Virus record (IMG/VR): IMGVR_UViG_3300023174_000048
Location: 96,001-160,000 of that record
DNA: 64,000 nucleotides
Reading direction: 5' to 3' (one strand)
Source of the DNA: a virus
Lineage: Duplodnaviria > Caudoviricetes
Made by a program: the position numbers and the translations under genes. The stretch's first letter is position 1, and every line of letters begins with the position of its first letter. The notes below the pieces were generated by a model. It did not search any database. It was given only the letters and a program-made list of their open reading frames with translations, and was not told the DNA's origin. Positions 22,523 to 64,000 of this stretch are shown here, piece after piece.

Positions 22523-22567
22523 CGACAACCCTGCGTTCATCTTGGGCGCAGGTGTTGTCGTTTAATT
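22523..22567 (+). terminator. Hairpin at the convergence of the two transcription arms
   Basis: CGACAAC-CCTGCG pairs with CGCAGG-(T)-GTTGTCG and is followed by TTTAATT on the + strand. There is no U-tract for the - strand. Confidence 0.7.
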
Positions 22568-38798: not shown

Positions 38799-41700
38799 TT
38801 ATGCTATATCAAACCAATTGTGAGAGTATCCTGTTCTCTGACTAAATCCAGCCCCATTCGTTACCAGTACAACGCTACTATTAGCAATTGTGATAATAAT
38901 TCTATTTCTATCTCCTCCATCTGTATAAGTCCACACTTTAAATATGGGACTAAGTAATCCATAATTCGGAATTACTCGATTCCAAGAGACCTTATTGTTT
39001 ATTGATTCATATACGTTTCCATCAGTTGTTGTGATAATATATCTCCCACTACTGCTAGTAGTCACATATATTCCATATCCGTATATTATTTTGTCTACAT
39101 TAAACATACTATTTTGTGTAGATGATGTTATAACACTCCAATATATTCCGTTACTACTGGTCATCACATTCATTCCTGCTCCATATTGTCTATTTCCTAT
39201 TATTATAAACTCATTATTAAGATATTCTAATGACGAACAAGGCACAATTTGTCCACTAAATGATCTTACTGTCCATGTTAATCCATCCGGAGATGTTGCA
39301 CAGGAGCCTGAGTTGTCTGTAGCAGCAACAATGATGTTGGCCCCATAAGCAATTCCTTTCCAATTAGCATAAGCTGGTAATGTAGAATAAGTAACATCTT
39401 TAACATTCCCATTTTGAAATTTAATTATAGCAACTTGAGAACTAGTATTTGATGTTAATATAAAGTTGTTATTAATAGGATCATATGTAGAATTAATCCA
39501 CAAGGCGCTAGTACTCGGTATCTCATTTGATATATCATATGATTGCCAAGTCATACCATTATCAGTAGAATAATTAATTATATAACTAGTATATGCTGCA
39601 GCAATAAATACTCCATTACCATAACAGATTGTTGTCCAATTTTGATTATCTGGTAAGTCCTTTAAAACAAAAGAATTACCATAGGTTTGAGATACCATAG
39701 CCTTGTTATTATTGTATGCTACAGCAACAGCATTAGCTTGAGGTATGGCACTAGTTGCTGTTGGAGTTATGGTTACTGTTGGAGTGGTGGTTGTTGTTAT
39801 AGTAGGAGTGATTGTTGGAGTTTGTGTTGATGTTATACTCGGTGTTATTGAAACTGTTGGCGTTATTGTTCTGGTTGGAGTAGCCGTGGCAGTTACACTA
39901 ATAGTAGGAGTAACTGTTATTGTTGGGGTAGTTGTAACAGTGTTTGTTATGCTTGGGGTTATAGTAATTGTTGGACTAACACTAGCTGTTGGAGTCGCAG
40001 TATTCGTGGAAGTTATTGTTGGCGTTGTTGTTCTAGTTGGAGTAGCAGTAGCAGTTGTACTACTAGTAGGGGTAACTGTTATTGTTGGACTAATACTAAT
40101 TGTTGGAGTCGCAGTATTCGTGGAAGTTATTGTTGGGGTGCTTGTTGGCGTATTTGTTACGCTTGGCGTGATTGTATTAGTAGGAGTAATTGATGGAGTA
40201 TTTGTCGTCGTTATAGATGGTGTGGGACTATTAGTTGAAGTTACTGTATTGGTAGGAGTTACTGTTTTCGTTGGTGTTGTAGTTAACGTAACACTCGGCG
40301 TTATGGTATTGGTAGCGGTATTACTTGGTGTTATAGTGCTTGTGTTCGTTTTAGTAGGGGTTATACTATTAGTTGGCGTATTGCTAGGTGTTGTTGTGGG
40401 TGTTTTTGTTTGTGTTGGGGTAGGGGTCAGAGTAGTAGACTGAGCAACAAAAGAGAACTCCCTCTCTGCTCCGTCATAAATAACCTCACCATTATTATTC
40501 AGTCTACCGGCTGCTGCTTTAAATGTATAGGTTCTTCCATTCACCATCCTTAATCTAACATCATTATAGTTTAGTGTTATGCTACCATTAGCATTTATGC
40601 CATCATAATCATCACTAAAATTAAGACTATCACAAGTTAAATAATAGCCACCAAAAATTGAGTTAGAGGGTATTGTTGGGGAGACAAAATTAATTGTAAA
40701 AGATTGTGCCGACGTTGTAACTGATACAGTTGGTTGCCCTATTGGTGAACCAATATTTAAAACAGGAACAGTCAAGCTAGCAGATCCAATTGTTCCACAA
40801 TTTGTTAGATTATTATCACAAGCACTAACATAAAAAGTTACAGTACTACCAGCAGATGGAAAAGTATTAGCTTCATAATAGCTTAAAACACTGTTGTTTG
40901 CAGTAATACCCTCATCTCCAATTCCAGGAACACTAGACTCTACTCTATAATTAATTGGTCCTGTGCTTGTTGATAATATATTTAAGTTTTCTGGATAATT
41001 CCAGGAAATACTAAAAGATGGCTGATTATTAGTAATAATAGTTTGTACAACAATGTTCGTAGGAGCAGTTGCTGGAAGATTAGCTGTTGATAATGATATT
41101 GATTGATTTAATAATGAAATATTAGGCAATAATTTACCATCAAAAAACAATCCTTTATATAAAGCTTGTATATTATCGTTAATAAAAACACTATTTTGAT
41201 AAATTAATTGTCCAAGATTTACCGGACTGCACATTGATTTGCTTGGAGTAACTGTTGGAGTAGATGTTTTAGTCGGGGTTGGAGTCTTAGTATTTGTTGG
41301 TGTTTTTGTCGGGGTTCTAGAATTAGTTACAGAAATTGTTGGAGTTATAGTAGGAGTAGATGTGTTTGTTGATGACGGCGTTTTAGTTTTAGTTACACTC
41401 GGAGTTACAGTTCTAGTAGGAGTTACTGTTAATGTACTTGTTTTTGTTGGTGTTTGAGTAACAGAACCTGTAGGAGTTTTTGTTAAAGAAACTGATGGAG
41501 TAACAGTATTTGATGGAGTAAGTGTCTGGGTTGGAGTTGGAGTTGGAGTGATACATCCAAGATTCGTTGGTCCATTAGCCACACCAGTTACTGAGTCTGC
41601 AGTTACTGATGTTGGAACAGAATCGCTTTTTGTAGAATAAGTCCAATAACCAGCTCCAGTTCCACCCTTATTTGGATCATAATAAGCAGCTTTATACCAT

Positions 41701-42470
41701 TCGTTCTCTGTTGGTATCCAGTAAGAGTTACTATTATTCTTTGATGGCTTACTAGTTCCTTGTATTATAAAACCAGATAAAGAATACACTCCATCCTCTG
41801 TAGTTGAGTTGGATGGAACTCCTGTTGGTTTCCCATTACTTAGCCAGTTCACATATCTTGCAACACAAAACCAATTTATAAAATTAACTGGTTTATCTCC
41901 CATGTTTGCAAGAGAAGCATAAGAATATGATCCTGAAATTCCTGATCTAGAAATGCCTCCTCTTTGTGCAATATCTCCCATTTGAGAAACCCACAAAGAT
42001 AAGCTGTTAGAAGATATTGCTACTGCATTTAAAAATTCAACATATTCATTATTAGTTATTAGATATTTTTTAATTTGATAAGTATAGCTCACAGATCCAA
42101 GATTATTATTAGAAGAGTCAGAACTATTATTTGTGTTATTAATTAAAACATAGTTCTGTGAGTCTATGCTTGCCGAACTTTTTGCTATTCTAAAACCCAA
42201 ATCACTTCTTTTAGAGTCAAAGAAGTTAATATCAGCATAAGTCTTTTTTAAAGAATCTCCATTGCTAGCAAATGATCCACCTCTAAAAATTGGATAGCTA
42301 TTACTTATAGTATCTAAAAGCTCATTAACATTTCCGCTTTGATCATATGTTCCGTAGTAACTAGGTTGTCCATTTGATCCTACAGAAGTAATATTACCAG
42401 TTAAAGCATTCCATGATGCTGAATTATTATAATTAGCGGTATTACAATTATTTAATAAATAACTCATCAC
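38799..42470 (-). CDS. Fibre/adhesin-like protein: permuted FGE-sulfatase (C-type lectin fold) domain, two Thr/Pro stalks, Ig/FN3-like region, Asp-box beta-propeller
   Basis: YGTYDQSGNV, RGGSF, GFRIA, KYLITNNEY, PTENEWYKAAYY; (TPT)n tracts; STDNGMTW, SPDGLTW, SSNGIYW. Confidence 0.8.
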   Translation of the reverse strand: MMSYLLNNCNTANYNNSASWNALTGNITSVGSNGQPSYYGTYDQSGNVNELLDTISNSYPIFRGGSFASNGDSLKKTYADINFFDSKRSDLGFRIAKSSASIDSQNYVLINNTNNSSDSSNNNLGSVSYTYQIKKYLITNNEYVEFLNAVAISSNSLSLWVSQMGDIAQRGGISRSGISGSYSYASLANMGDKPVNFINWFCVARYVNWLSNGKPTGVPSNSTTEDGVYSLSGFIIQGTSKPSKNNSNSYWIPTENEWYKAAYYDPNKGGTGAGYWTYSTKSDSVPTSVTADSVTGVANGPTNLGCITPTPTPTQTLTPSNTVTPSVSLTKTPTGSVTQTPTKTSTLTVTPTRTVTPSVTKTKTPSSTNTSTPTITPTISVTNSRTPTKTPTNTKTPTPTKTSTPTVTPSKSMCSPVNLGQLIYQNSVFINDNIQALYKGLFFDGKLLPNISLLNQSISLSTANLPATAPTNIVVQTIITNNQPSFSISWNYPENLNILSTSTGPINYRVESSVPGIGDEGITANNSVLSYYEANTFPSAGSTVTFYVSACDNNLTNCGTIGSASLTVPVLNIGSPIGQPTVSVTTSAQSFTINFVSPTIPSNSIFGGYYLTCDSLNFSDDYDGINANGSITLNYNDVRLRMVNGRTYTFKAAAGRLNNNGEVIYDGAEREFSFVAQSTTLTPTPTQTKTPTTTPSNTPTNSITPTKTNTSTITPSNTATNTITPSVTLTTTPTKTVTPTNTVTSTNSPTPSITTTNTPSITPTNTITPSVTNTPTSTPTITSTNTATPTISISPTITVTPTSSTTATATPTRTTTPTITSTNTATPTASVSPTITITPSITNTVTTTPTITVTPTISVTATATPTRTITPTVSITPSITSTQTPTITPTITTTTTPTVTITPTATSAIPQANAVAVAYNNNKAMVSQTYGNSFVLKDLPDNQNWTTICYGNGVFIAAAYTSYIINYSTDNGMTWQSYDISNEIPSTSALWINSTYDPINNNFILTSNTSSQVAIIKFQNGNVKDVTYSTLPAYANWKGIAYGANIIVAATDNSGSCATSPDGLTWTVRSFSGQIVPCSSLEYLNNEFIIIGNRQYGAGMNVMTSSNGIYWSVITSSTQNSMFNVDKIIYGYGIYVTTSSSGRYIITTTDGNVYESINNKVSWNRVIPNYGLLSPIFKVWTYTDGGDRNRIIITIANSSVVLVTNGAGFSQRTGYSHNWFDIA
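39750..40440 (-). repeat. Thr/Pro-rich low-complexity coding repeat (second stalk) containing a 56-nt duplication
   Basis: 39967-40022 and 40081-40136 match at 53/56 nt, with a period of 114 nt. Confidence 0.9.
41240..41550 (-). repeat. Thr/Pro-rich low-complexity coding repeat (first stalk)
   Basis: ITPTPTPTQTLTPSNTVTPS...TPTVTPS. Confidence 0.9.
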
Positions 42471-49436: not shown

Positions 49437-52400
49437 TTAATTAAACCATCCAGGACCATTATTATTTGTATCACACCACCAAGGAATCTCATTATATGAT
49501 AGAGTGTTATCGGAACATAGCGAGATAGTATCTTCATCTAATCTTAATGGCTTAGCATTAAATGAACAACCAGCAGATATGCAACTCGCAACAGAGCCAA
49601 AAACAGAAGCATAAGGATTATTATATTGGGTTAATAGATTTATTGATGGAGATACTGTGGTTGTCCCTTGTGATGTAGGAGTATCTACCACTACTGGATC
49701 AGTTAACCCTGTAAAACTTTTTGCAGATCGTATGGTTCCGTCACCAACAACAATATGGTCAACATATAACCACCCACTAACACTAAGATTAGCATATAAT
49801 TTTGCTGCCGAACCTGTGATATCAATACCTGTAGCTATAATTTCTGGCTCACTACGCTTAATACTTACGGTAGATGTTCCTGTAAAATCGTTAGAATTAA
49901 CAGGACGATAGTAGGCTGCCTTATGCCATTCATTAAGATTGGGCAACCAATACTTTCTATACGATGACTTAACAACATTATAAGAATTACTTCCTATACT
50001 ATATATTGTATATGCTCCGACGCTTAAATTATAATCAATATCAGACTCACTTAGCGTAATACTTGCTCCATTATGTAGCCAATTAATGAATTTAATAGCA
50101 CTCAAGTAGCTAACAAAAACTACTGGTTTATCACCCATATTTGACTTTGTACTATACTCATATCCAGCATTACTAATACGAGTAATTCCTCCTTGAGCAT
50201 TACTACTCATTCTAATGTCATATAGTTCACGATCATTAATTTTTGCTACTGCATTTAAAAATGCACAGTATTGTGTATTTGTTACTTCGTATTTACCAAT
50301 ACGATAAATATTATTTACAACACCAAGATTATTAATAACTTGTTGAGAATAAACTGTTGGAGATCCTGCTGGGTTTTTAATATAAATAGGATTTAAATCT
50401 TCTATATTTTTAGGATTATTAACTCCAACAAAAGACATATTAAGACCATTTGTACTAGAGATATAAGTCTGGTCTGTTATACCTTGTAGACTAGCAATTC
50501 TAAACCCAACATAATTATATCCTGACGCTCTAATTAAGGACTCAATACTTTTTAAAACATTAGATCCTATTATGCTGTCATTTGCTGTAGAATAAGCTCC
50601 TCCCGCAATAAATTCTATACTATCTCTAGATTCTATTGCGTCTTGTTTTTCTATCCATTCAGCAGCATTACCGTTCTGATCGTATGTTCCATAGTAAGAC
50701 GGCAATCCATTAGTGCCCACACTAGACAATAATCCAGAAAAAATATTTCTACTATTATCATATGCGTAATTTGCAGATGAATACTGGTTTGATAATCCTA
50801 CTCCTGTAATATTAATTATTGTAGAAAACATATCCGAACGACCCGTGGCAAAACCCGAATAGATTCCAGAAGGTATTAATATTCTTCCTGTATTTGCTTT
50901 AATGAATAATGCTGGATCATCTCCAAGTCCATATACTGAGAAATTAATATCTTTTTGACCAGCATTAAATGTTGTATCTACTAATGGTCTAATGCTTAAA
51001 GTATTAGAAGATGAATTTGAAATTATTCCATCATCAACACTCTTAGTCATTGTTAAATATCCACCCTTAGTTATGGAGTAAATATTAACATTTGATGTTG
51101 TATTTTGTACGATACTTTCATCAACTAAAAGTCCAACAATAGCATTGCCATTTAACTCTAAACTAATAACTCTTCTATATAAATTAGATCCATTATATGA
51201 TATTACTATTTGGTCTCCAGGAGCAAACTCATCAGAAGGAACACTATCTGCGAAAGTAATTTGTCTTAAGCAAGCTGTTGCTGTTCGTGGAGAATATTTC
51301 GTCCAGACTATGTCTCTCTCAGTTAAGAAATAGTCATCTAGAGTATATATTCCAGTAATTGCTCCGTTTGCTGTTGTGCTCAATAATTTATTTGCTGGAA
51401 CAGGAATTCTTAATGATCCTGCTGAGTCAATACTGAGTGGACTATTAATTATTTTGCCACCAGAAACCATCAATAATCCGCTAGACCCTAAATTACTAAT
51501 GGTTATATTAGACGCATCAATATTTTGTGAAGATATGTTTGTTAAATATGATGTCCCTGTGGCATATAATGAGGCAGACGAGAATGTTATGGATGATTGT
51601 GGACTAACTGTTATTTGACTGCTACCATTAGTTAATAGTAGATTACCATTATTATTAATCTGTAATCTATTTCCACTATATCCAACATATGTAGAATCTA
51701 CTGTTGTTTGTATTGTTTTTATTCCTGTGACACCAGAAACTACTGTGATATCTAATGAGCCCTTTTCTCCATAAACTGTTGTATTGACTGCTCGTGATTC
51801 TATCTGGGCATAATTTGTTTGATTGCCTGTAGAGTTTTTAGCAGAAAGGTTGATCTGGGAAACTACGCTTCCACTAGTGATGTCTGTGGATGGTTTATGA
51901 TAAAGTGTTATATTTGCTGGATAACAAGATGTTCTATTCTCTAGTCTTAGACCCTCTTGACAAACCGTATTAACAATATGAAATACTGTTGATGGTCGTG
52001 AGCCTGAGGGAATGTTGATTCCTACTCTTCCGTCATAAGAAAAAAATAAATTTTTATTTAATGATCCACTTCCATAAACTATAAAATCACTACCATTACT
52101 ATTGTTATTAACAACAAATGGATATGTGCCGCTGGTCGGTATGATAGTATCTGCGGATGATGCTGAATTTGCTCCGATAAATACTCTTTGAGACCCTGAG
52201 TCCCAATACATTTCTGCATTATTGATGTCTGCACTCATTATAGAAAAAGTATCAGAATCATTATTTAATGACTGTACGCCCATTCTTTCTGGTGTCTTAT
52301 TATTTAGTACTACCCAATCCTTCCCTGTTGACGCCAATCTTGCATAATTATTAAACGAATCTAGTGTGCATACTAGCGAACCATCCTTATCATTTATAAA

Positions 52401-52892
52401 TAATGGGTTTGATGATTCTATTAGTTTTAATTCAATAATAATATTGTTTGACTGGTCTAATGATGGAAGATTAATACTGATAGATTTTGAAGAGCAGTCT
52501 ACAAGATACAAGGCGCTTATAGGATCTAAAGATAAATCTTTATCAATAACGATTGTGTTGTTTAGTCCTTTGTCAAAAGAACTTTGATTAGCAAATACAT
52601 AAAAATCATTACCAGAAGATGGAAAATCTACTGTATTGTTATTATTAGACGATGAAATAGTCTCAATTCTTTTAACAACAATATTACCAATATTATCAAA
52701 TACTATTTCTCCAACACCAGTTTCAAATAGGCGACTATTTAAGTTTCTGGCTATGTAAGGAATTAAATATCCTACATGATTGGTATTAAGAATATTATAT
52801 GTTTTTATAGCAGATACTGGCTTAATACCGTCATTTTCTATAACGAAATTAAATCCAATATTATCAAATACTCTTATTAGTTTGTTTGACAT
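49437..52892 (-). CDS. Tail fibre-like protein with a second permuted FGE-sulfatase domain
   Basis: SYYGTYDQNGNAAEW, GFRIA, YRIGKYEVTNTQYCAFLNAVA and YWLPNLNEWHKAAYY. Confidence 0.8.
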   Translation of the reverse strand: MSNKLIRVFDNIGFNFVIENDGIKPVSAIKTYNILNTNHVGYLIPYIARNLNSRLFETGVGEIVFDNIGNIVVKRIETISSSNNNNTVDFPSSGNDFYVFANQSSFDKGLNNTIVIDKDLSLDPISALYLVDCSSKSISINLPSLDQSNNIIIELKLIESSNPLFINDKDGSLVCTLDSFNNYARLASTGKDWVVLNNKTPERMGVQSLNNDSDTFSIMSADINNAEMYWDSGSQRVFIGANSASSADTIIPTSGTYPFVVNNNSNGSDFIVYGSGSLNKNLFFSYDGRVGINIPSGSRPSTVFHIVNTVCQEGLRLENRTSCYPANITLYHKPSTDITSGSVVSQINLSAKNSTGNQTNYAQIESRAVNTTVYGEKGSLDITVVSGVTGIKTIQTTVDSTYVGYSGNRLQINNNGNLLLTNGSSQITVSPQSSITFSSASLYATGTSYLTNISSQNIDASNITISNLGSSGLLMVSGGKIINSPLSIDSAGSLRIPVPANKLLSTTANGAITGIYTLDDYFLTERDIVWTKYSPRTATACLRQITFADSVPSDEFAPGDQIVISYNGSNLYRRVISLELNGNAIVGLLVDESIVQNTTSNVNIYSITKGGYLTMTKSVDDGIISNSSSNTLSIRPLVDTTFNAGQKDINFSVYGLGDDPALFIKANTGRILIPSGIYSGFATGRSDMFSTIINITGVGLSNQYSSANYAYDNSRNIFSGLLSSVGTNGLPSYYGTYDQNGNAAEWIEKQDAIESRDSIEFIAGGAYSTANDSIIGSNVLKSIESLIRASGYNYVGFRIASLQGITDQTYISSTNGLNMSFVGVNNPKNIEDLNPIYIKNPAGSPTVYSQQVINNLGVVNNIYRIGKYEVTNTQYCAFLNAVAKINDRELYDIRMSSNAQGGITRISNAGYEYSTKSNMGDKPVVFVSYLSAIKFINWLHNGASITLSESDIDYNLSVGAYTIYSIGSNSYNVVKSSYRKYWLPNLNEWHKAAYYRPVNSNDFTGTSTVSIKRSEPEIIATGIDITGSAAKLYANLSVSGWLYVDHIVVGDGTIRSAKSFTGLTDPVVVDTPTSQGTTTVSPSINLLTQYNNPYASVFGSVASCISAGCSFNAKPLRLDEDTISLCSDNTLSYNEIPWWCDTNNNGPGWFN

Positions 52893-52895
52893 ATA

Positions 52896-55800
52896 TTAGG
52901 TTCTCATTGGGCGATTGTTTGCGGCTGAGTTTAAATTGCCTTCAAATTGGGTTCTATCGTATTTAGCTACTGTATTTTGACTTGTAATAGCTCCAGCATA
53001 ATGACCAGCACTTTCTCCAGCACTTTTTCCAGCAGCAGAAGCGTGGTTTTGTACAGAGCCTACGTCTAATCTAACCGATTGTGTACCATTTATTTCTGCT
53101 GTTAATGATGTTGGTATTTGACTAGCAGTCTCTGACCAAGTATTTGCTGAACTAGCAATTGTTTGTGAGGCACTAGAGAATGTTTGGCCGAAATTGTTTA
53201 ATGTTTCAGTACTGCTTTGTATCATTTGACTATATGTTTCCATTCCTGATTCGAGTGCGGTGCTTAGTTGGTTCATAGCCTGTCCTACTGCAGCGCTAAT
53301 ACTAGACGATATATCATTAGATACACCACTACTACCACTACTGCCGCCACTACCTCCACTAACTAATCCAGCCTCAGCATAATATTTGGGCGCAACTATT
53401 CCACCATTGGCCAAATAGTTAACAATTCCACCTCTATTGAAATGGCCACTATTTATAGCATTAAGAAGAGGCATATGTTGCTGACTAGACTCTCTGTTAA
53501 CAACAAACTCTCCAGGAGTTAGCATGGCTGGTACAGTATCTGTTCCCTGAGATAATGATGGAACTAATGCTCCATTATTAGCATATACCAAGCCGCCAGA
53601 AGCATACATCATTCTACCACCAGCAGGCTTAGGAACATTCTGTATTTGTCTTTCTCTTTCTGCTTTTTTATATTCTTGTGACTGAGTGTAGTGGTCAGGA
53701 ATAAGTCCTTGCGCCCCTAACTCTTGTGTTCTCTGTTCTATTCTTTTTGATTCTGCTGCATTATCGGCCATTTGTCTGGTTGTGGATTCTGTTTCTACAA
53801 CTAATTGTGCTGCTGCTCTTCCAGGACTAAACATGTTCTCGCCAAAATTTTGAGCATACCCTTGCTGTCTTTGTCTATCATTTTCTTTAGCATAGTCTTC
53901 TGCTGTTTTTTCTCCGCTCATTATTGCTGCTGCTTCGGATGCGTAACTGCCAGCAGCATAACCTCCATAAGCAGCAACGGCGCCAATGCCTGTTGCGGCA
54001 GCAGGACTTGAGGTTCCTAGTCCAAAAACTTTTGCTCCATGACCAACAGAGTGTGCTGTGTGTCGTGCTTCTCCGATCATATCAATTCCTTCTCCAACCA
54101 ATGTTGCTGTGTGTCCTGTACCAAAATGGGCATCAAGATTAGATCCCATTGTTCTCATATTTAATGGATTTCTTCCTCTGGTAGCAACAGCGGACAATCC
54201 TGTAGAAGCAGCATTTCCAGCCAAAGAACTAGTTGTCATACCATGATGACCATGAGAATCATGACTGTCATGATCGTCAACATGACCACCATTACCATAA
54301 TATCTTACTAGTCCACCTTTATTATATCCATGGAATTTCATTAACTTCTTTAAAATTCTTTCTGCTATTTTATTGCCTTTTACTTTTTCGATATTTTCTA
54401 CTAATGTTGTTAGTAGTTCTGATGGATTCTTTTTTATAGCCGATGAGCTGTATCCATTCTTGCTCTTGCCACCACTAATAGAAGATAATCCACTAGGATC
54501 ATCAACAAATTTTTCTATTTCTTTCATTAAGGGCGATTTCTGTAAACTTCTTTTTCCAAAAGGATCTTTTTTACTACCTTTCGTACTTTTTTGAAATAGA
54601 TGACCAAGCTCGTGTTTCACAATACTCTCATCAGCATATTGAGATCCAAAAACTAGTTTTGATTCTGCTGTTGTCATACCAACTTTACTAGAATTTGTTA
54701 CTGGTCTATTTATTCCTTTTATTTGTCTACTAGCATTGATTTTGTCTAGATCAACCGATACGGATTGTGGTGTAGATTTTTCAACAAATTCTGATAAGAA
54801 CTTATTCCTTCGTGCTGGAGTAACATAATCAGCCAAATCACTTGCTAAATTCTCCTGAACTTGTCTGAATGACACCGGGTCTGTAACATTAACTTTTGAT
54901 TTTGTGGCTGTTGTTGGCTTAACTGGTTTAGTTGGAATAGTTGGTTTAGTTGGTTTGGGTTTTACTATAGATGGTCCGGCAACTGTTGTTTTAGCTTTTC
55001 CTAACACGCTTTGGGTCGCTGTGCTATTTGGAACACCTTGATTAACAAGATCTTGAATCTGTTGATATTGTGCTGCTGTTATTTTGGGCTTAACTTGTGG
55101 ACCGGGTGTTGGCATAGTCAAATCAATATTTGATAATTTTTCATCCAATGCTCTGCTTCTTGCTGCTTTAGCTTTGGCCGCTAGTCTACCATAATTACCA
55201 TCATACTCTAATGGATTAATATCGTCTATGCTTCTGATTTTGGTGGGAGCAGACTCTGGGAATGTTACTGGCTTTGCTGGTTTTAAATTCTTATAAGAAG
55301 AAGTAGTGCCTGATCTATTAAGATTTGGTCTTGAATAACTTGGGGCAATACCTCTAACTCCTATAACATCACCCATTTGAGTAGCAACATCTTGAACGCC
55401 CTCAACAAAATTATTAACTGCCCTTCCGGCTCCACGAGCACCAGGAATTCTACCACCCAATCTTCCTGCTCCTCTGGCAGTTGATGTAATAGCTCTATCT
55501 ACTGTTCCAGCAACTCTGCCAACACTAGCAGCACCAGGTATTTTACCAGCAGCCCTACCAACACTAGAAACACCAGGTATTCTACTAGCGACCCTTCCAG
55601 CAGCCCCTGCCATTCGACCGGCAACATTAAATACTGCTCCTTCAGCATTAACTAATGCTCCTGCGCCTTGAGTGCTTCCATACGCAGTAGTTTGAGCAAA
55701 TGCTGTACCAAAGCCAGCCCAACTATCCATACCACCAGCCAGCTCCACATTTCTAGCATCATTACGTTGTAATGCTGTTTGCTCACCAGTTTGTATCGGC

Positions 55801-58800
55801 CCCATACCAGCAACAGCTTGTCCGGCTTCAACAAAACTAGTTGCTCCAGCACCCATAGCCCTTAGTCCAACATCGGCGGCCGCAGAAGTTGCTGCAGAAT
55901 AAGCTCCCTGTTGATTATTTAGTCTGTCGCTGTTTGCCGTAAATGTTCTTGCTCTTATAGCAGCAACATCTTGAGCAGCCGCTATCTCTTGAGGAGATGG
56001 CATTGGTCTGCCATTAGCTCTAGCCTCATCATACATATTTTCGGCTGTTCTGTTTCTTAAATTATTTTCGTCTCCAATTTTAAAAGCTGTATCATCTCCA
56101 GACATAGCATATCCAATACCTCCAACAATAGGAGATGCAACTGTTGCAACTGCTCCGGCAGTTATATTTGCCGCCCCATAAAGGGCGTCTCCAATACCCT
56201 GAGTTACTCCTCCAACATATCCTACTGCTGCCGTAGCAGGATTGCTACTATTTATATATAATGATGCTTGTCTATCTTCTTCGGCTTTTTGCTGTTGTGC
56301 TCTAACCTTTTCTGCCGCACTAACTTGTTGGGCCCCTTCAAATTGTGCTATCGCTTCGCTATTTGCTTGATCCTGTAATAGTTGTTCTGTTGTTGGAACC
56401 TTATAGCTTGCAACAGATTCCTTATAAGGTTTAGGCATATATGATCTTTGTTCATCTCTATATTTGTCTCTTTGCTCTTCTTTAACTTTTCCTTCGGCTA
56501 AGAATTTATTAAATTTATTATCTATTTCTGCTGTTTGAGCATCTTCTTTAGCTTTATTTCTTTCATTGATTACTTGCTGTCTTCTTTGTTTCTTATAAGC
56601 TTCTCTATTTCCTTCATCATCTCTCCATGCTCCTGATTCTAATAGTTGGTTAAATTCAACATCAAATGCTTGTTCTTGAGCTGCTATTTGTGCTCTTTTT
56701 TCTATTCCTATTTTTGTGCTAGTAATAGCACTATCTGCTTCTCTCTTTTTCTTCGTGTCGCTTGAAGTTGTAGCCGTTTGAATTGAAGAAGATAATCCTG
56801 GACTAGCAGTTATTCTATAAACATTTTGTGTTTCTGCTTTTGCTCGTATTTTTGGATCATTACTATATTCTAATGGATCTGTAGCGCCAACAGATTGATA
56901 AGAATTTATTTGACTATTCGGCATAAACAACTGATTTGGATATTTTATCATTGTCTCAGTCGCTAGTACATTCGATGGTGATCCAAGAGGAAAGTTAAAC
57001 CAATCTCTGCGTGAGCTTTCTCTATCTCTAGTTGTTTTTTGAGACTCAAACCTTGGGGTATTAGGATCTCCTCCATATGTATAATTTGTTCCAGCAACAT
57101 AATCTCCAGGCAACGATACTCTAGGACTTGGAACCATTGGACCAATATTAACGCCTAATCTTCCATCCTGATTTTTAATTTCTGGTGTTCTCAAATTAAC
57201 AGAAGTATTAGTCTGGGTTGCTTGTTGAGTTTGCTGTGCCTCATAAGCTCTATTATCGGCTATGCGATTAACCATTCCTTCTAAAGGATTTCTTGTTTGG
57301 TATTTTGGATCATTTGGATCTGGCTTTTGTAAAACCTTATTGGTAGTATAAGATGCTAATCCTGTTTGAACACCAGAAGAGACCGCAGGATCAGTTATAT
57401 CAGGTCTTGCAGTAGTATACTGCTGTCTAATTCCTGATTCGATTGCGGCATTTTGTTGGGCAGCCTGTTGCTCATTGCTTGGTCTTGAGTAGCCTTCATT
57501 TATTCTAGAGGCCGTTGCTGGATCAAGACCGCTAGGATTTACTGCGTTGCTAGTTATTGGAGGCAACGCAGCACTAAATGATAGAGCACGTAAACTTCCT
57601 CTATTTCTACGATCAGAACCTAACTCTTTTAGGGCTGATCTTTCTTCTGGTGTTATCTCATTAGACTGAGCACCTTTACGATAAGCACTATTTACTAAAG
57701 AAGAAATATTACGATCTTTTTCTACAGTATATGGACCGACCTCTCTTTTTATTTGATTAGATTTCAATGTTGCATATTCTGTTTCTTCTTCTGGACTTCT
57801 TCCTTTGCTTCCTTTCATCCACAATGATCGTCTTCGTGAGTCTTCAGATTTGATTTTTTTCTTCTCGTCAATAGCTTCTTGAGTTGGTCTAATTTTTGTT
57901 GTTGTTCCTCTGCCCCACGGAATAACATCTGCTCTTACTAAAGGAACCGGTAATGATGGTTGTATTACTGGTTGTGAAAATTCTTGTGGAGACAGCGACG
58001 TTTGAGCTATTGGAGTATTTAATGCTGCTGTTTCAGCATCGCGTGCTTTTTCAAATCTTTCTGTAGCTCTTTTCTTTTCTTCGTTAAAAAAATTAGCACC
58101 AACAATAGCAGAATTAGGATCCTCCTTTATGCTACCATATCCTGCATCGTTAGCGCTTCTGAGCTGTGCATCGTTTTCTTTATTATTATAATTATCCCAT
58201 CTATTTTGAAATTCTGGTTCATATTTTTTGGCTTCTGATTGTCTTTCATCTTCTGTCATCCCCATCCATCTACCATCGCCTACCTGAGATTGTGCCCAGC
58301 TAGATGATGTTCTAGAAACTACCTCATCAGGTCTTCCTCCAGTTGCTTCTGACATCATCCATGATTCTTTTTGAGCATCTATTCTTTCTTCTTTTCTTTT
58401 TTGTACTTCGCCACCCTGTGCTAAATAAACCACTCCGCCCTTACTATAATTTCCACTATTAATAGCTTTCAATAATGGCAAGTGTTCTGAGGTTGATCTT
58501 GCATTAATCACAAACTCGCCCGGAGTTAACATAGCAGGAACAGTATCAGTTCCTTGTGGTTGGAAATTTACTAATTGACCTTCACTAGCATAAATTAATC
58601 CTCCGCGAGCCTTCGGAGGAGCAACTGGGGCGGCAACTCCGATATTTAATGGAACTTTAGCTCCGCCAGGAGCATTAATTCTACCTTCATTCATATCATT
58701 ATTAAGCATACTAGCTTCAACAGTTGTTCTAAGATCATCTATACTAACCTTAAGGTTGGCATTTGCTGATACTAGAGCCTGCTGAGATTCTAATAAAGCC

Positions 58801-61800
58801 AACTCTCCTTGTGCCTTAGTAGCATCAGCCTGTAATCCAACAGACTGTAAATATTTGCTAGAAGCTTCTTTCATTGCGGGATCAGCGTTAGGATTTTCCA
58901 TAGCAGCTATTGATTGCTGAACAAGAGGATTATTCATCATTCCACTCTCGATAGCCATACTCTTTGTTAATTGTAATTGTTGTTGTTTAAAATAGTCAGC
59001 AACAGCTTGGTCAGCACTTACCCCAGGCTTTCCTTTACCCTGAGCATATTGATTTCTAATATTTAATTCTTGAGCAGCTCTTACTCCAGGATCTTGTGAT
59101 AGGGCCAGTGTTTCTTTTCTTTGATTGGCTAATACTGTATTACCAGCCTTAGTAGCTTCTCTTACACTTCCTGTTTCTCTTAATGTTTGATTAAATGCTT
59201 TGCGAGCATCTCTTTGATTACTAGCACCATTTAATCCTCCAGAAAGATTTCTTTGAAGTCTTATAAATGTTTTATTAAGTTTATCAGCTTCTTCTGGAGT
59301 ATTTGTTAGTAATGTATTAACAAAACTTTCTCTATTCTTCTGAAGATCTCTAACATTCTTTAAATCATCAAATGCTTTTTCTACTAATTCTGTGCTACTT
59401 GCTAATGTGTCTAAAGCTTCTCTTGTATCTCTTAATTGATCGTCTAATGATCTTAGTTGTATAGCAGATTTTTTAAGTTCATCAGGATCGCTCATGCCCT
59501 GTCTTTTTTCTTCTACTGCTGTTCTTTGTGCTTGTAAGTCAACAATTCTATTTTTAATTCCACCAACAGAGGTTTCTCCGCCAGCTAATCCGGCCACATC
59601 ACCCATAACTCTTGCTTGTTTCTCATCATAAGTTTCACCAACGCCCGTCATAACCTCTCTAAGATTCATATCTCCTTGAGCTCTGATATCTCTAGCTTTC
59701 TTAAAATAGTTCTGAGCATCTTTTGCTGCTTTACTAGCATCTCTAAGACCTTCGGAGAAATCGGCTAATGCCCCTTGTTTAAACGATGATAATGCTTTTA
59801 CTGCTTCAAGCGTTTTAACTCCAAAGGCCCCAAGAATATTATCGGCATCTCCTAATCCTTCTCTAAAAGCGTCTAATTCTGCTTGAGGCGTATCATTTTT
59901 TTTCTTAGCTTCTTCTGCTAAATTATTTATTCTTGTTTCTGCTTGTTTTTTAAGGCTTGTCTTTTGTTCATCTGATAAGTTTGTTTTATCTATTTGTTCA
60001 TTAGTAGTTTTAATAGCCTCTGTTTTGGCTTCTTCAACTCCCAAGCTTCCCTTGGTACTTAATTTTTCTGCTATGCTTTTTGTTATAGCATTTGGTAATT
60101 GTTGTTGTAGTTGTGCTCCGCCTATTAACTGGTTCCTAGTTTTTTCATCAACTCCTGCTGTTGCAGACTGTAAGGCTTGATTAAAATCTTTTTCAGAATA
60201 AGCATTTGGATTTTCAAGAACATTTAATTCTCTTAACTTTGGACCATTATCTTCTGATTGTCCTCTTAATGCTGATCTGCTTTTTTCTGCCGATGATTTT
60301 CTAACATCAGATTCGAATTTAATTCTATTAACAGATTCACTAATAATATTTGATAATTTTTCAAAACTAGCTGCTAGTTTTCTGCCAGCTTTGTCTGCAG
60401 CCTCTAAAGCATCAGACATTTGTTTTGTTTTTATTGCAGATTGAACCTGAACATTTGTCAGTATTTTTTGATTAGCAACTTCATCTAATATTGCATCTTG
60501 TTTTTCTTTAGAAACCTTCTCATACCCACCTTCTTCCATAATTCTTGCTCTAACCGTTTTAAGAGCATCTTCATCTGCTAATACTAATGCTCTTCTAGCC
60601 CCAATTAATTCTTTATCTGCTTGTATAGATTCTACACTAGCTCCAGTATTAATTTTTTGTGATATTAAAGCAAATGCTTTGTCTCCACTATCAGCATTTC
60701 TTTCAGCTATCTTGCTATCTAATTCATTAAAATCTTGAGTATCCATCTTTGGCTTTTCTGCTCCGGATAGAAACTCTGTCCATGTTCTAGTTTTACCCTT
60801 TTCATTTTGTGCAACCTTAGTCTCAGCAGAAACAGCTTTTAGAGATGATTCTGAGGATCTAACAAGAGCCTTATCTAAAGCCTTTTGTAGATCTATATTA
60901 CCAAGATCTTTCTCAAAATCCTTGAAAGCCTTAGCCAAATCTTTTTCAGAAGCGGCCACTTCTTCAAATCGTAAATTCTTTTCCATCTCTAGAGCAGCAG
61001 TTTCTTGTGCTCCAGTAAAATCGGTAAAATAATCAGTAGCAGCATAGACTACTGTACCTAGTGCTGTTAATCCTCCTAATAGGGGATTTATAGCCATTAA
61101 TTGAGAAGCAGTTGTTAAACCGGTTGCTAGTGTTGATCCGGCCTGTTCAATAGCGGCCCCTTTACCAGCAGCAGCAATCTTTCCTTCGTCTGTGGAAGTA
61201 TCATACATTAGATTTGCAATATTTTTCCCTTGTCCACCAACTAATCCTGCCACCATTCCAACGTCTCCCAAAGCTGTTCCAATTCCTTGGGACATTGTTC
61301 CTGAGAAGTATCTTTCTTGAACAGCTTTTTTAATAGGACTATTTCTAATATCAGTTAAACCACCAGCGCCAACTCCTTTTTCTCCCTGCTCTTTGGCCAT
61401 CTCATTAATCATTTCTCTTCTTTTACTAACTTCTTCCTTAGCAAGAGAGAGTGCTTCTGATGCTGATTTGACTGAGACACCTCTAACAGTTCCAGCATTC
61501 TTATATTCTTCTAATCTCATTGCAATAAGCTGTTTATCCATCTGAGCTAATGTTTTACGATCAGTCATTGACTGAGAAACATAACTTTGAATATCAGCTC
61601 CGCCGATGCCCATTCCTGAAAGTTCTGATCTTTTAATTCCAGTAACTTTTTCTGTGGCTGATGAGAATGCCTGCTCTTTAATCTGTCTTTGTTCTTTTTC
61701 TAATCTTCTATTAGTTCTTCGTTCTAGTTTATCTTTATCTCCTAATAATGATGGATCTTTTTTGATTAAATCTTTTTCTATTTGTGATTTTCTTTGTGCT

Positions 61801-64000
61801 GTAATTAATTTTTCTTTTTTCTCAGCTTCTGTTAAAATGGCTTGCTGGGCACCACCCGAACCAAGAACTTTACCTGTTTTTGATTCTTTTAATCCTGCTT
61901 CTAAAAATTGTCGTTTTGCTACTGCTGTTTTAGCTTGATCTCTAACATTCTTTAATGCTTTTTCTGCTGCTATTATAGTGTCTATTGATGCTCCAGTAAT
62001 CTTGAGTCTTTCAACATCCTTAGTCATTGCCTTTTCAATATCTTTATAAGATATGTCAGCTCCTGCCCCAACTTGTTCAAGAACTTTCTTAAAGCTTATC
62101 ATGCTATAACCAGCTTCTTCAAAACCTTTTGTTAATAGTTTAATATTATTAACTAGTTCTGATGAAGCTTCTATACTTTTACTATCAATAGTTTCTGGTC
62201 TGGTTTTTAATTTTTGAACTGCTGGTTCAGCAAAACCTTTTAATCCTTTCATTATTTCTTCAATACTAAAAACACTACCTCCAGTAGCAAATCTTTGAAT
62301 TACTCCTCCACCAACTACTCCTCCCTTATTATAACCCTGTAATTTATCCGCTTTATTTAATGTCTCTAACTTGCCATATCCTATTTTTTCTGCTGCTTTC
62401 TTATTAACAACAAATTCACCAGGAGTTAATAATGCAGGAACAGTGTCCTTTGATGATATTCCTGCTTGTCCTCCTTGAGCAAAGGTCTCGATATTGGTTG
62501 GCTTCAAGGGAGATGATCCAACATATTTTAATGCTAATCCTAGTGGTTTTTCAAAAAGTTTGGATTCAAAAGAATTTACTAATTCGGGATCTCCAGATTG
62601 TATTCTGGACATAAGCTGACCCAATAAAGCCCCTTCTCTTACATCTCCTTCACTTCCGGCATAAATAGATTTTCTTGATCCTCCAGGCAAGGTAAACTCT
62701 GTTCCGTCTTCGGACTTTAATGTTTGAGATCCTTCTTGAACACGTACTCCAACCGACATCATCCCAGCGTCTGGATTTTTATCAAACTTACCTTTTAATC
62801 CGGTTTGATTTTCAGTAGGAGCATATTTATCTTTAAGAGTATCGTAATTATCATGCATCCATTGTACCACTAGTCCTTTTTGTAATTCATAATCTAAATC
62901 ATAAGTTTTTGGATCTAAAGTTTCATCAAAACTTAATACCATTGGTTTTCCTGATCTATCTCCTTGAGCAACAGTGAAGTTGCTTCCTCCATTAACTCTC
63001 ATCTTAGCTTGTTGTTCTGCTTTATTCTTTTCTGTATATAAGTAGAATCCTTCTCCTTGACCATATCCTTTAGCAATATTAGAAAGGGCACCTTTTTCTT
63101 TAAAGCTCTTTAAAACACTATCATCAACTCCGGTATTGCTTCCGTGATATAGTTTAACTTGTCCTCCAGTAGCATATCCTCTATTTTTTCTCCACATTTT
63201 TTCATCATTAGTTTTGGTCTCAAACTCTTTTGGCTTGCGACCTTGTTTTTCCATAGCCTCTTGTATTCTTTTTTGTTTATTAGCCTGGGCAAGTTCATAT
63301 CTTTCTTGTTCTGGTGATGTTTTTTTAGATGGTATTAGTCCAAATCTTTTGTTTATCTCCCAGTCTGGAATAGCATAGTCTTTATATCTATTATCTAATC
63401 GTTCTTCTAATTTTGCTGTGAGTTCTTCTTGGCTCATGCCCAAAGTCTTTGCTCGTGCGGCAATATCGGGTGGGGAATATGATCCTCTTACCCAGCCACC
63501 CTCGGAAAGCATTTGTATGTCTTCTTTGACGGGTTCTGGAATTCCATATTGTTGTCTAAAATGTTTTTGGAATTCTTCAACAGCCTTGCCTCTACTATTA
63601 CTATCTATTGTTCTTTTAACTTCTGTTGGAATATCAGGATCGATACCAAATATTTTTGCTGCTTTAGATCCGATGCCCATTGGAAAGTCAATCGGACGAG
63701 TTCTTAAAGCATCGTCTAATATTGTAGCATCTGCTGATCCAAAAATTTGTTCTAGTAAAGCGCCTTCAATATTACCCTGACCTAATGTTTCTCTTTGTTT
63801 TTTAGTTAATTTCTTTGGAGATATTCCAAGAAGTTTGGCTGCTCCGCCTACAATTTCTTCTGTTTGACCACTAAGATAATCAATTACATTTTGATATTGA
63901 TTTGGTAATCCTCTCTGAACTATTGAAGCATCTATTGATCTTTCTTGTCCAGACGAATCAACTCCAAGATTCCAAGTTTCTGGCCCTAATAATCCAGTAT
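52896..64000 (-). CDS. Giant tape-measure-like protein (>3,700 aa), 5'-truncated by the window edge, with embedded enzyme-like domains
   Basis: The frame stays open from the track start (63680) to base 63998, checked by hand. Long helical Ala/Lys/Glu-rich core; three DTVPA(M/L)LTPGEFV motifs; lies upstream of the tail genes. Confidence 0.8.
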   Translation of the reverse strand, partial: TGLLGPETWNLGVDSSGQERSIDASIVQRGLPNQYQNVIDYLSGQTEEIVGGAAKLLGISPKKLTKKQRETLGQGNIEGALLEQIFGSADATILDDALRTRPIDFPMGIGSKAAKIFGIDPDIPTEVKRTIDSNSRGKAVEEFQKHFRQQYGIPEPVKEDIQMLSEGGWVRGSYSPPDIAARAKTLGMSQEELTAKLEERLDNRYKDYAIPDWEINKRFGLIPSKKTSPEQERYELAQANKQKRIQEAMEKQGRKPKEFETKTNDEKMWRKNRGYATGGQVKLYHGSNTGVDDSVLKSFKEKGALSNIAKGYGQGEGFYLYTEKNKAEQQAKMRVNGGSNFTVAQGDRSGKPMVLSFDETLDPKTYDLDYELQKGLVVQWMHDNYDTLKDKYAPTENQTGLKGKFDKNPDAGMMSVGVRVQEGSQTLKSEDGTEFTLPGGSRKSIYAGSEGDVREGALLGQLMSRIQSGDPELVNSFESKLFEKPLGLALKYVGSSPLKPTNIETFAQGGQAGISSKDTVPALLTPGEFVVNKKAAEKIGYGKLETLNKADKLQGYNKGGVVGGGVIQRFATGGSVFSIEEIMKGLKGFAEPAVQKLKTRPETIDSKSIEASSELVNNIKLLTKGFEEAGYSMISFKKVLEQVGAGADISYKDIEKAMTKDVERLKITGASIDTIIAAEKALKNVRDQAKTAVAKRQFLEAGLKESKTGKVLGSGGAQQAILTEAEKKEKLITAQRKSQIEKDLIKKDPSLLGDKDKLERRTNRRLEKEQRQIKEQAFSSATEKVTGIKRSELSGMGIGGADIQSYVSQSMTDRKTLAQMDKQLIAMRLEEYKNAGTVRGVSVKSASEALSLAKEEVSKRREMINEMAKEQGEKGVGAGGLTDIRNSPIKKAVQERYFSGTMSQGIGTALGDVGMVAGLVGGQGKNIANLMYDTSTDEGKIAAAGKGAAIEQAGSTLATGLTTASQLMAINPLLGGLTALGTVVYAATDYFTDFTGAQETAALEMEKNLRFEEVAASEKDLAKAFKDFEKDLGNIDLQKALDKALVRSSESSLKAVSAETKVAQNEKGKTRTWTEFLSGAEKPKMDTQDFNELDSKIAERNADSGDKAFALISQKINTGASVESIQADKELIGARRALVLADEDALKTVRARIMEEGGYEKVSKEKQDAILDEVANQKILTNVQVQSAIKTKQMSDALEAADKAGRKLAASFEKLSNIISESVNRIKFESDVRKSSAEKSRSALRGQSEDNGPKLRELNVLENPNAYSEKDFNQALQSATAGVDEKTRNQLIGGAQLQQQLPNAITKSIAEKLSTKGSLGVEEAKTEAIKTTNEQIDKTNLSDEQKTSLKKQAETRINNLAEEAKKKNDTPQAELDAFREGLGDADNILGAFGVKTLEAVKALSSFKQGALADFSEGLRDASKAAKDAQNYFKKARDIRAQGDMNLREVMTGVGETYDEKQARVMGDVAGLAGGETSVGGIKNRIVDLQAQRTAVEEKRQGMSDPDELKKSAIQLRSLDDQLRDTREALDTLASSTELVEKAFDDLKNVRDLQKNRESFVNTLLTNTPEEADKLNKTFIRLQRNLSGGLNGASNQRDARKAFNQTLRETGSVREATKAGNTVLANQRKETLALSQDPGVRAAQELNIRNQYAQGKGKPGVSADQAVADYFKQQQLQLTKSMAIESGMMNNPLVQQSIAAMENPNADPAMKEASSKYLQSVGLQADATKAQGELALLESQQALVSANANLKVSIDDLRTTVEASMLNNDMNEGRINAPGGAKVPLNIGVAAPVAPPKARGGLIYASEGQLVNFQPQGTDTVPAMLTPGEFVINARSTSEHLPLLKAINSGNYSKGGVVYLAQGGEVQKRKEERIDAQKESWMMSEATGGRPDEVVSRTSSSWAQSQVGDGRWMGMTEDERQSEAKKYEPEFQNRWDNYNNKENDAQLRSANDAGYGSIKEDPNSAIVGANFFNEEKKRATERFEKARDAETAALNTPIAQTSLSPQEFSQPVIQPSLPVPLVRADVIPWGRGTTTKIRPTQEAIDEKKKIKSEDSRRRSLWMKGSKGRSPEEETEYATLKSNQIKREVGPYTVEKDRNISSLVNSAYRKGAQSNEITPEERSALKELGSDRRNRGSLRALSFSAALPPITSNAVNPSGLDPATASRINEGYSRPSNEQQAAQQNAAIESGIRQQYTTARPDITDPAVSSGVQTGLASYTTNKVLQKPDPNDPKYQTRNPLEGMVNRIADNRAYEAQQTQQATQTNTSVNLRTPEIKNQDGRLGVNIGPMVPSPRVSLPGDYVAGTNYTYGGDPNTPRFESQKTTRDRESSRRDWFNFPLGSPSNVLATETMIKYPNQLFMPNSQINSYQSVGATDPLEYSNDPKIRAKAETQNVYRITASPGLSSSIQTATTSSDTKKKREADSAITSTKIGIEKRAQIAAQEQAFDVEFNQLLESGAWRDDEGNREAYKKQRRQQVINERNKAKEDAQTAEIDNKFNKFLAEGKVKEEQRDKYRDEQRSYMPKPYKESVASYKVPTTEQLLQDQANSEAIAQFEGAQQVSAAEKVRAQQQKAEEDRQASLYINSSNPATAAVGYVGGVTQGIGDALYGAANITAGAVATVASPIVGGIGYAMSGDDTAFKIGDENNLRNRTAENMYDEARANGRPMPSPQEIAAAQDVAAIRARTFTANSDRLNNQQGAYSAATSAAADVGLRAMGAGATSFVEAGQAVAGMGPIQTGEQTALQRNDARNVELAGGMDSWAGFGTAFAQTTAYGSTQGAGALVNAEGAVFNVAGRMAGAAGRVASRIPGVSSVGRAAGKIPGAASVGRVAGTVDRAITSTARGAGRLGGRIPGARGAGRAVNNFVEGVQDVATQMGDVIGVRGIAPSYSRPNLNRSGTTSSYKNLKPAKPVTFPESAPTKIRSIDDINPLEYDGNYGRLAAKAKAARSRALDEKLSNIDLTMPTPGPQVKPKITAAQYQQIQDLVNQGVPNSTATQSVLGKAKTTVAGPSIVKPKPTKPTIPTKPVKPTTATKSKVNVTDPVSFRQVQENLASDLADYVTPARRNKFLSEFVEKSTPQSVSVDLDKINASRQIKGINRPVTNSSKVGMTTAESKLVFGSQYADESIVKHELGHLFQKSTKGSKKDPFGKRSLQKSPLMKEIEKFVDDPSGLSSISGGKSKNGYSSSAIKKNPSELLTTLVENIEKVKGNKIAERILKKLMKFHGYNKGGLVRYYGNGGHVDDHDSHDSHGHHGMTTSSLAGNAASTGLSAVATRGRNPLNMRTMGSNLDAHFGTGHTATLVGEGIDMIGEARHTAHSVGHGAKVFGLGTSSPAAATGIGAVAAYGGYAAGSYASEAAAIMSGEKTAEDYAKENDRQRQQGYAQNFGENMFSPGRAAAQLVVETESTTRQMADNAAESKRIEQRTQELGAQGLIPDHYTQSQEYKKAERERQIQNVPKPAGGRMMYASGGLVYANNGALVPSLSQGTDTVPAMLTPGEFVVNRESSQQHMPLLNAINSGHFNRGGIVNYLANGGIVAPKYYAEAGLVSGGSGGSSGSSGVSNDISSSISAAVGQAMNQLSTALESGMETYSQMIQSSTETLNNFGQTFSSASQTIASSANTWSETASQIPTSLTAEINGTQSVRLDVGSVQNHASAAGKSAGESAGHYAGAITSQNTVAKYDRTQFEGNLNSAANNRPMRT

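Follow-up and report, generated by a model that had tools for sequence, protein, structure and literature searches.

Putative enzyme cassettes in the giant tape measure protein of an uncultivated phage

Results

A giant tape measure frame at the end of the window

The DNA analysed here, referred to as the window, is a stretch of 64,000 nucleotides (nt) from the IMG/VR virus record IMGVR_UViG_3300023174_000048, and the subject of this work is the giant reading frame at its end. This frame lies on the minus strand (52896..63998), comprises 3,700 codons with the stop codon at 52896-52898, and is open at its 5' end where the window stops; its product is here referred to as P0001. A reading made earlier from the letters alone, here called the sequence-only reading, had described a single giant frame encoding a tape-measure-like protein that serves as a scaffold for several effectors, and had asked for the upstream sequence to be recovered. 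A library search returned a protein of 5,565 amino acids (aa), P0012, and since this protein includes P0001 letter for letter, it is by sequence identity the complete product of the window gene, with a tape measure core at its N-terminus. The frame in the window is hence the C-terminal two thirds of a giant tape measure protein, and residue i of P0001 corresponds to residue i + 1865 of P0012. A close relative of the phage, G001 (131 kb, estimated to be 95% complete and with 98% nucleotide identity to the window), encodes the orthologue P0002, again as one frame, of 5,642 aa. Taken together, the data presented below suggest, short of proof, that this tail ruler has a second role in bringing enzymes into the host.

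When scanned by itself, P0001 gave no match to Pfam or PHROGs families; the assignment as a tape measure became possible with upstream sequence taken from a relative. Residues 185-391 of the full-length orthologue match PF10145 (PhageMin_Tail) with 87.9 bits (E value of 1.1e-24, above the curated cut-off), and residues 17-505 match PhageMin_Tail plus 12 tape measure PHROGs; the giant frame of G001 scores 93.6 bits against PF10145. A tape measure repeat with a DTVPAMLTPGEFV core is present in three copies in the window and in four copies in the full protein. When one of these copies (P0001 around residue 3487) was used in a tblastn search, 51 GenBank phages matched, and nearly all of the 40 matches shown fall in genes annotated as tape measure protein. 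The genes immediately downstream of the frame match minor tail protein PHROGs and fn3, and no chaperone or major tail protein was recognisable among the upstream genes. The giant frame is the sole PF10145 frame in G001 and in G002, a genome that is 100% complete with terminal repeats. It encodes the tape measure protein that the sequence-only reading had surmised, and this is the single one of the phage. The phage itself is uncultivated and has a genome of approximately 130 kb; because no tail sheath family was detected, which is a weak negative, it is probably a siphophage.

A frame of this size could in principle result from faulty assembly or gene calling, or could encode a polyprotein outside the virion that has borrowed a tape measure domain; the genome is known from metagenomes only and its upstream genes are unrecognisable. 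We consider this highly improbable and rejected both an artefact and a second tape measure gene, as an uninterrupted giant frame of the identical type recurs in five independent IMG/VR contigs and in 62 database clusters, is the sole tape measure candidate in the two near-complete genomes, and is located directly upstream of tail-like genes.

An uncultivated family of giant tape measures

A family profile was built from residues 1040-2210 of P0002 and searched against 1.84 billion representative proteins. This yielded 131 clusters at 50% identity, 94 of them with E values below 1e-30 and nearly all of these giants. Seventy-one family proteins have at least 3,000 aa, 31 have at least 5,000 aa, and the longest has 7,279 aa. 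Sixty-two proteins with 3,000 aa or more have a tape measure core, and all of them (62/62) begin with it, nearly always followed by a repeat. By their shared profile, these giant tape measures (3,000-7,279 aa) number at least 62 and form one uncultivated family. It is of note that many stretches of 1,000-3,000 aa in the related giants (P0011-P0141) are without any assignment.

Cultured phages gave a different picture. A tblastn search of the GenBank phages with the window part of the protein gave no matches, and when the N-terminus was added (residues 1-2440), only the core matched, at approximately 24% identity, to SPbeta YomI and similar proteins. The cassette region described below is thus absent from all GenBank phage records searched, and no cultured phage among them carries the cassettes.

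An ADP-ribosyltransferase-fold cassette

The segment at P0001 275-514 had been read as ADP-ribosyltransferase (ART)-like. It has eight database homologues, none of which has a Pfam family and some of which are stand-alone proteins of 239-302 aa. An alignment of 12 sequences revealed that the motifs YHG, GYGQGEGFY and DLDYE are kept, as is G[FL][YF], and when the catalytic triad of His, aromatic and acidic residues was looked for, YHG was found in the first predicted strand of the AlphaFold model, the ART core of which has predicted local distance difference test (pLDDT) values of 70-87. A Foldseek search of PDB with this model produced a list made up almost wholly of ADP-ribosyltransferases, including tankyrases (20-23% identity), PltA, cholera and heat-labile toxins, diphtheria toxin homologues, ExoA and KptA, but none of the E values was significant. 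VIA, an aligner independent of Foldseek, matched model residues 348-585 to ARTs with Z scores of 4.2-6.0. The best match was KptA (Z score of 6.0, root mean square deviation of 3.1, 85 aligned residues), followed by pertussis S1 and PltA (5.8) and approximately 25 further ARTs, among them the Rhs toxin TreX, PARP16, Arr, DarT, diphtheria toxin, and PARP1, 2, 10, 13 and 15. The ESM Atlas shape search pointed to PARP, DUF3990 and ART-PolyVal clusters, with template modelling scores by hit of 0.51-0.53; a language-model search of Atlas features placed ART-PolyVal clusters at 0.87, which serves as a lead only, and Pfam gave a weak DUF3990 match to the segment. Because three structure libraries (Foldseek, VIA and the Atlas) agree, though with middling scores, the model supports an ART fold for this segment, which would represent a new clade and a putative enzyme.

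A stand-alone homologue of this cassette, P0008, with 29% identity, is encoded in an apparently archaeal genome (L012, 8001-8729). Its neighbours are a ribosomal protein operon, SecY and an EMC3/TMCO1-like gene, with no phage context.

A conserved alpha/beta module with an E...D...ExK motif

Directly at the window edge lies the end of a module that the sequence-only reading had called PD-(D/E)XK-like. The module is present in 56 family members, and 23 aligned copies share a helical Glu, the sequences ID[FY]P and [E/D/Q]-x-K-R-T, and [FL]AxGG at their end; the positions conserved across these 23 sequences are E139, D160, [E/D/Q]182 and K184. The motif seems genuine and looks like an active site. 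An initial structure prediction of this module together with the ART cassette, based on 13 sequences, gave pLDDT values below 50 for the module, and the prediction was redone with a deeper alignment. The resulting model (pLDDT of 82, predicted template modelling score of 0.70) has a long helix and three long strands, followed by helices and two short strands. It matched no nuclease or other known fold in searches of PDB with Foldseek, AFDB clusters, the ESM Atlas and BFVD. Matches to the N-terminal helix took up the wide VIA list, which left the core poorly probed, and in a second-look search the best matches were small GTPases at a Z score of approximately 3. Stand-alone homologues were searched for and none was found. 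With five structure libraries and the second look empty, we rejected a PD-(D/E)XK nuclease fold. Only the motif of the earlier assignment stands, and on the evidence of the model, the module is a conserved alpha/beta domain to which no known fold could be matched.

Two HExxH modules

The HExxH motif occurs once in the window part of the protein, as HELGH at P0001 3129, in agreement with the sequence-only reading. The surrounding module keeps HExxH and, in alignments, a downstream Glu within SELLTTLV, and it ends in YNKGGLV and YGNGGHV. A second HExxH module is located upstream, at about residues 962-1207 of P0012. In 28 copies of the upstream module, the H, E and H residues are invariant, as are the Gln that comes after the second His and the sequence EEFLTT further downstream. 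Since the C-terminal and upstream modules align in hhalign with a probability of 92% and an E value of 5.5e-7, the profiles identify them as paralogues. In the metallopeptidases of polyvalent proteins (PMC5512222), the zincin pattern consists of an HExxH helix and a Glu on a helix further along the chain. Profile searches of both modules against solved structures returned only noise and no zincin link, Atlas features were weak and mixed, and the search for stand-alone homologues found one fragment. The modules are likely, if unproven, zincin-like peptidases.

Cassettes upstream of the window

The remaining cassettes are located in the part of the protein that lies outside the window. The most widespread of these, found in approximately 80 family members, is a P-loop module with a Walker A motif (AGSGK[ST]) joined to a nucleotidyltransferase. 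A profile of 36 sequences matched the HIGH-type structure 3gmi at 2.1e-7 and the NadR-type nicotinamide-nucleotide adenylyltransferase 9x6f at 4.2e-5, the latter over 149 residues covering HxGH and ISxT. In the alignment, G227-H228 and S364-T366-R369 (the HxGH and ISxTxxR motifs) are invariant or nearly so. Phosphopantetheine adenylyltransferases and cytidylyltransferases also appear among the matches, and the best match over the full domain is a nicotinamide mononucleotide adenylyltransferase (NMNAT). By profile, the module is an NMNAT-like nucleotidyltransferase with a HIGH signature and a putative enzyme. The P-loop part pointed to AAA_33, PRK and zeta-type kinases, which we regard as a lead only. 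A staphylococcal nuclease (SNase)-like motif, DGDS...GFDAYE, was noted by eye only.

From N- to C-terminus, the predicted order in the full protein is an SNase-like segment (motif only), a 'B' block with the upstream HExxH module, the P-loop kinase-like module with the NMNAT-like HIGH nucleotidyltransferase, the E...D...ExK alpha/beta domain, the ART-fold domain and, near the C-terminus, the second HExxH module. The proposal of a multi-effector scaffold thus holds for a tape measure with several enzyme-like modules set between linkers, and fails for the nuclease assignment of the segment that had been listed first.

It is conceivable that these cassettes serve the particle or the envelope instead, by self-processing during tail assembly or by local penetration of the wall or membrane. 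The closest cultured relative of the core, SPbeta YomI, is a tape measure annotated with a lytic transglycosylase, and lytic transglycosylase, peptidase or Rpf motifs occur in other tape measures. The HExxH modules could likewise be wall peptidases or maturation proteases, and the hydrophobic Gly/Ala segments suggest membrane insertion. A Pfam census speaks against such a role. In 22 cassette zones, HIGH_NTase1_ass was found in three, ADPrib_exo_Tox in one and DnaJ in one, and in the C-terminal halves of 16 relatives, only an EF-hand was found, in one of them; no peptidoglycan hydrolase family was detected in either set. Moreover, it is established biochemistry that ART folds and HIGH nucleotidyltransferases use cytoplasmic NAD+ and ATP. 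We therefore regard a role confined to particle or envelope as unlikely, at about one chance in five. The ADPrib_exo_Tox domain, seen in a single relative, is a second ART type, unrelated to the one in the window.

Cassettes end in GG linkers and are exchanged between phages

The recurrence of xxGG linkers at module boundaries, also part of the sequence-only reading, was confirmed by counts. The pattern [FY]xxGGx[VILM] occurs 8 times in P0001, compared with 0.28 +/- 0.54 times in shuffled sequences. An hxxGG motif lies within 20 aa of the C-terminal end in 86% of HExxH modules (n=36), 89% of E...D...ExK modules (n=46) and 88% of ART modules (n=8), and in 3/3 C-terminal HExxH modules, compared with approximately 16% of random positions.

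Aligning the tape measures of relatives, as had been proposed, revealed that cassettes vary in presence and order while the GG linkers persist. The pair of B block and HExxH module precedes the kinase-nucleotidyltransferase pair in some proteins and follows the E...D...ExK module in others, and the ART cassette is found in 9 and the SNase-like segment in 4 relatives. The idea that cassettes are swappable gained most from L007, a 206-kb IMG/VR contig. The ART cassettes of L007 and of the window share 92.8% of their amino acids and 91.1% of their nucleotides over 696 nt, compared with just 58% amino acid identity for the tape measure core, and the match spans exactly from [FY]ATGG to FA[QD]GG. 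Outside this cassette, the repeat cores alone are alike at the nucleotide level between the two genes. These identities indicate that the ART cassette moved recently between phages, with breakpoints at [FY]AxGG linkers.

The tape measure frame of L007 (6056-19999) also contains a weak Nuc_deoxyrib_tr-like match (E value of 0.013) at residues 2243-2326 of the tape measure, within a Gly/Ala-rich hydrophobic region. This segment may be another type of cassette.

The exchange data bear on a simpler view, in which the protein is a plain, oversized ruler for an extremely long tail and the modules are structural spacers or decayed, non-catalytic domains. In a cultured Nodularia siphophage, a tape measure of 3,404 aa is paired with a tail of 795 nm (PMC6293099), and length alone therefore requires no explanation by cargo. 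In addition, no Pfam enzyme family is recognised in the giant protein, and the helical blocks h1 and h2 are kept across many relatives. Against this view, motifs of a catalytic type (HExxH plus Glu; YHG and DLDYE; Walker A, HxGH and ISxT) show little or no variation in dozens of divergent relatives. Furthermore, two of the modules model as alpha/beta globular domains rather than as helices, and the core stays constant while cassettes are gained and lost. The plain ruler is in our view improbable, more so than a role in the particle or envelope.

Remaining features of the frame and neighbouring genes

The features of the frame are listed in Table 1. The proposed helical core fits the composition of P0001 600-1700, which is highly charged and poor in prolines (the longest proline-free run is 169 aa), and its blocks h1 and h2 are kept in 20-44 relatives. 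Hydrophobic Gly/Ala segments, likewise proposed, were found at P0001 901-1000 and 2601-2900 (31-43% Gly plus Ala), and hydropathy places membrane-like segments at 967-985 and 2610-2630. The charged helical linker at P0001 175-274 is present in 2 relatives only. Compared with the 98%-identical G001, the N-terminal two thirds are near-identical, and P0001 1966-2280 and 2978-3500 are replaced or strongly diverged. The His-rich patch described in the sequence-only reading is present from residue 3239, directly after a GG linker, and is not conserved, as G001 has an unrelated Gly/Ala/Ser-rich sequence at this place. Because its block is replaced in so close a relative, we take the patch to be a very recent variable insert.

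Table 1. Features of the giant tape measure protein, listed from the window edge to the stop codon
Feature	Window coordinates	Strand	Residues	Basis and remarks
E...D...ExK (PD-(D/E)XK-like) module, C-terminal 174 residues	63477..63998	minus		23-module alignment; AlphaFold2 pLDDT of 82
E...D...ExK module, complete span			P0012 1810-2039	starts ~55 residues past the window edge; ends LSEGGWV
Charged helical linker between E...D...ExK module and ART cassette	63177..63476	minus	P0001 175-274	helices predicted, low confidence
ART-fold cassette	62457..63176	minus	P0001 275-514	YATGG start, FAQGG end; structure matches
Tape measure repeat with GG-rich tail	62229..62456	minus	DTVPALLTPGEFV core at P0001 518	copy 2 of 4 in the full protein
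Helical core	58629..62228	minus	P0001 591-1790	composition, hydropathy; includes Gly/Ala stretch and membrane-like segment 967-985
Tape measure repeat	58389..58628	minus	DTVPAMLTPGEFV core at P0001 1818	followed by YSKGGVV and LAQGGEV
Variable region, Pro/Ser/Thr/Asn/Gln-rich, low hydrophobicity	56214..58388	minus	P0001 1871-2595	1966-2280 mosaic compared with G001
Gly/Ala-rich hydrophobic region	55299..56213	minus	P0001 2596-2900	membrane-like segment 2610-2630
C-terminal HExxH module	54279..54776	minus	P0001 3075-3240	HELGH at 3129 (nt 54600-54614)
His-rich patch HVDDHDSHDSHGHHG	54237..54281	minus	P0001 3239-3253	
Gly/Ala-rich variable block	53634..54236	minus	P0001 3254-3455	region diverging most from G001
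Tape measure repeat	53319..53633	minus	DTVPAMLTPGEFV core at P0001 3487	flanks YASGGLV, FNRGGIV, LANGGIV
C-terminal tail, Ser/Thr/Asn/Gln-rich, plus stop codon	52896..53318	minus	P0001 3561-3700	

Several other genes in the window are of note. Two neighbours of the tape measure gene on the minus strand (49437-52892 and 38799-42470; 1,151 and 1,223 aa) match the FGE-sulfatase-like family PF03781 with E values of 2.5e-11 and 6.8e-12, respectively; this domain is unusual among tail proteins and may act as a glycan- or receptor-binding module. Further downstream in the same gene block, two more giant frames of 2,576 and 2,157 aa (22566-36769, minus strand) gave no PHROG matches and are probably tail fibre or baseplate giants. 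The remainder of the window contains phage replication genes. The DNA polymerase is divided over two plus-strand frames (9228-11096 and 11974-13599) that match the N- and C-terminal halves of phrog_405, with a 231-aa frame (11270-11965) between them, and could be a split polymerase or one with an inserted mobile gene. Lastly, a plus-strand frame of 684 aa (910-2964) matches terminase large subunit PHROGs in its N-terminal 400 residues and, at residues 408-573, a UvsX-like recombinase PHROG; this combination may merely reflect a common P-loop signal.

Discussion

In this work, we describe a giant protein that combines a tape measure chassis with enzyme-like cassettes, which would be delivered into the host, and we put the probability of this reading at about 0.6. 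The chassis consists of the PhageMin_Tail core, four DTVPAMLTPGEFV...GG repeats, and a helical core of approximately 1,200 residues with hydrophobic Gly/Ala segments. Globular cassettes are spliced among these parts, each ended by an [FY]xxGG linker. Since tape measures exit the tail before the DNA does (PMC7824862), the cassettes would reach the host envelope or cytoplasm at the start of infection. A need for NAD+ and ATP would place the action of the ART and of the kinase-NMNAT-like pair in the cytoplasm, either in host takeover or against a defence that depletes NAD+. Cleavage at the GG linkers by the HExxH modules may release pieces of the chain, as has been proposed for polyvalent proteins. 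A fully specified version, which would amount to a class of phage effector delivery not described before and in which the chassis is built for recombination, phages exchange its GG-bounded cassettes, the injected kinase-NMNAT pair restores NAD+ to counter immunity that depletes it, the ART modifies host proteins and the HExxH modules cut their own chain at [FY]xxGG, is more speculative, and we offer it tentatively.

Several points weigh against delivery of enzymes by this tape measure. Packaging of the protein in virions, its ejection and its cleavage are drawn by inference from tape measure biology. Several copies of folded domains of approximately 25 kDa should not fit the lumen of a tail tube, and where in the tail some 1,800 residues of globular cargo per chain would be stored is a structural puzzle. 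As to the cassettes, Pfam and PHROGs recognise none of them in this protein, and the E...D...ExK domain matches no known fold. The ART model is of moderate confidence (core pLDDT of 70-87) with middling Z scores, and the ART-PolyVal hidden Markov model (PF18760) had no match in P0001 or in the genomes of relatives, even at an E value of 10 within a single genome. To these must be added the lack of a zincin link for the HExxH modules in profile searches and the 795-nm tail of the Nodularia phage, both described above.

If the proposed delivery of cassettes is correct, a widespread family adds a new delivery route for early effectors and shows a naturally modular way to load phage tails with cargo. 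In addition, the family supplies new domains that can be tested, namely, an ART clade, an HExxH clade and a conserved alpha/beta domain.

Phage proteins brought into the host upon infection have so far been described in three kinds (head-internal proteins, fusions to MuF or portal, and the N4 polymerase), and tape measures are known to bear wall-degrading domains. In the open-access literature, we found no account of a phage tape measure with an array of cytoplasm-type enzyme cassettes or of a polyvalent array anchored by a tape measure. Tape measures with embedded enzymatic domains include T5 Pb2 and that of mycobacteriophage TM4, which has an Rpf motif. SPbeta YomI, with its transglycosylase, similarly combines a tape measure core, approximately 24% identical to the one studied here, with extra catalytic parts for genome delivery. 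However, the known inserts of this type attack peptidoglycan and none such was found here; the modules of the giant protein instead resemble enzymes that act in the cytoplasm, occur many to a protein and have been shuffled among relatives. The Nodularia phage vB_NpeS-2AV2, a siphophage of approximately 139 kb, also has a very long tape measure (3,404 aa) with a DTVPAMLTPGEFV-type repeat, but its genome gave no match to the cassette region in the tblastn search with residues 1-2440.

A further parallel is provided by the Sle1-type effectors of actinobacterial contractile injection systems, which, according to Nagakubo et al. 2026 (PMC13277306), have a scaffold related to tape measures and an exchangeable functional domain and are packaged in a tail-like particle and ejected. 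These effectors are carried by a bacterial nanomachine and have a single variable domain at the C-terminus, whereas the protein studied here is a phage tape measure with an internal array of cassettes.

The closest likeness is to the polyvalent proteins of Iyer et al. 2017 (PMC5512222), which are very large phage polypeptides with unrelated enzyme domains, including ART and HExxH domains, are encoded among virion genes, are mosaic and are predicted to enter the host with the DNA. The giant protein differs from them in that it has no ART-PolyVal match, its HExxH modules show no link to the metallopeptidase clades described there, and it contains a cassette made of a kinase and an NMNAT-like part; that paper does not use the words 'tape', 'NMNAT', 'NadR' or 'adenylyltransferase'. 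At least two domains of disparate activity, by which such proteins are recognised, are predicted here in the form of the ART fold and the HIGH nucleotidyltransferase, in addition to the Walker A and HExxH motifs. By analogy, the giant protein may thus be counted among the described polyvalent class, with the difference that those proteins are anchored by MuF, portal or the N4 virion RNA polymerase and that here the anchor is the tape measure.

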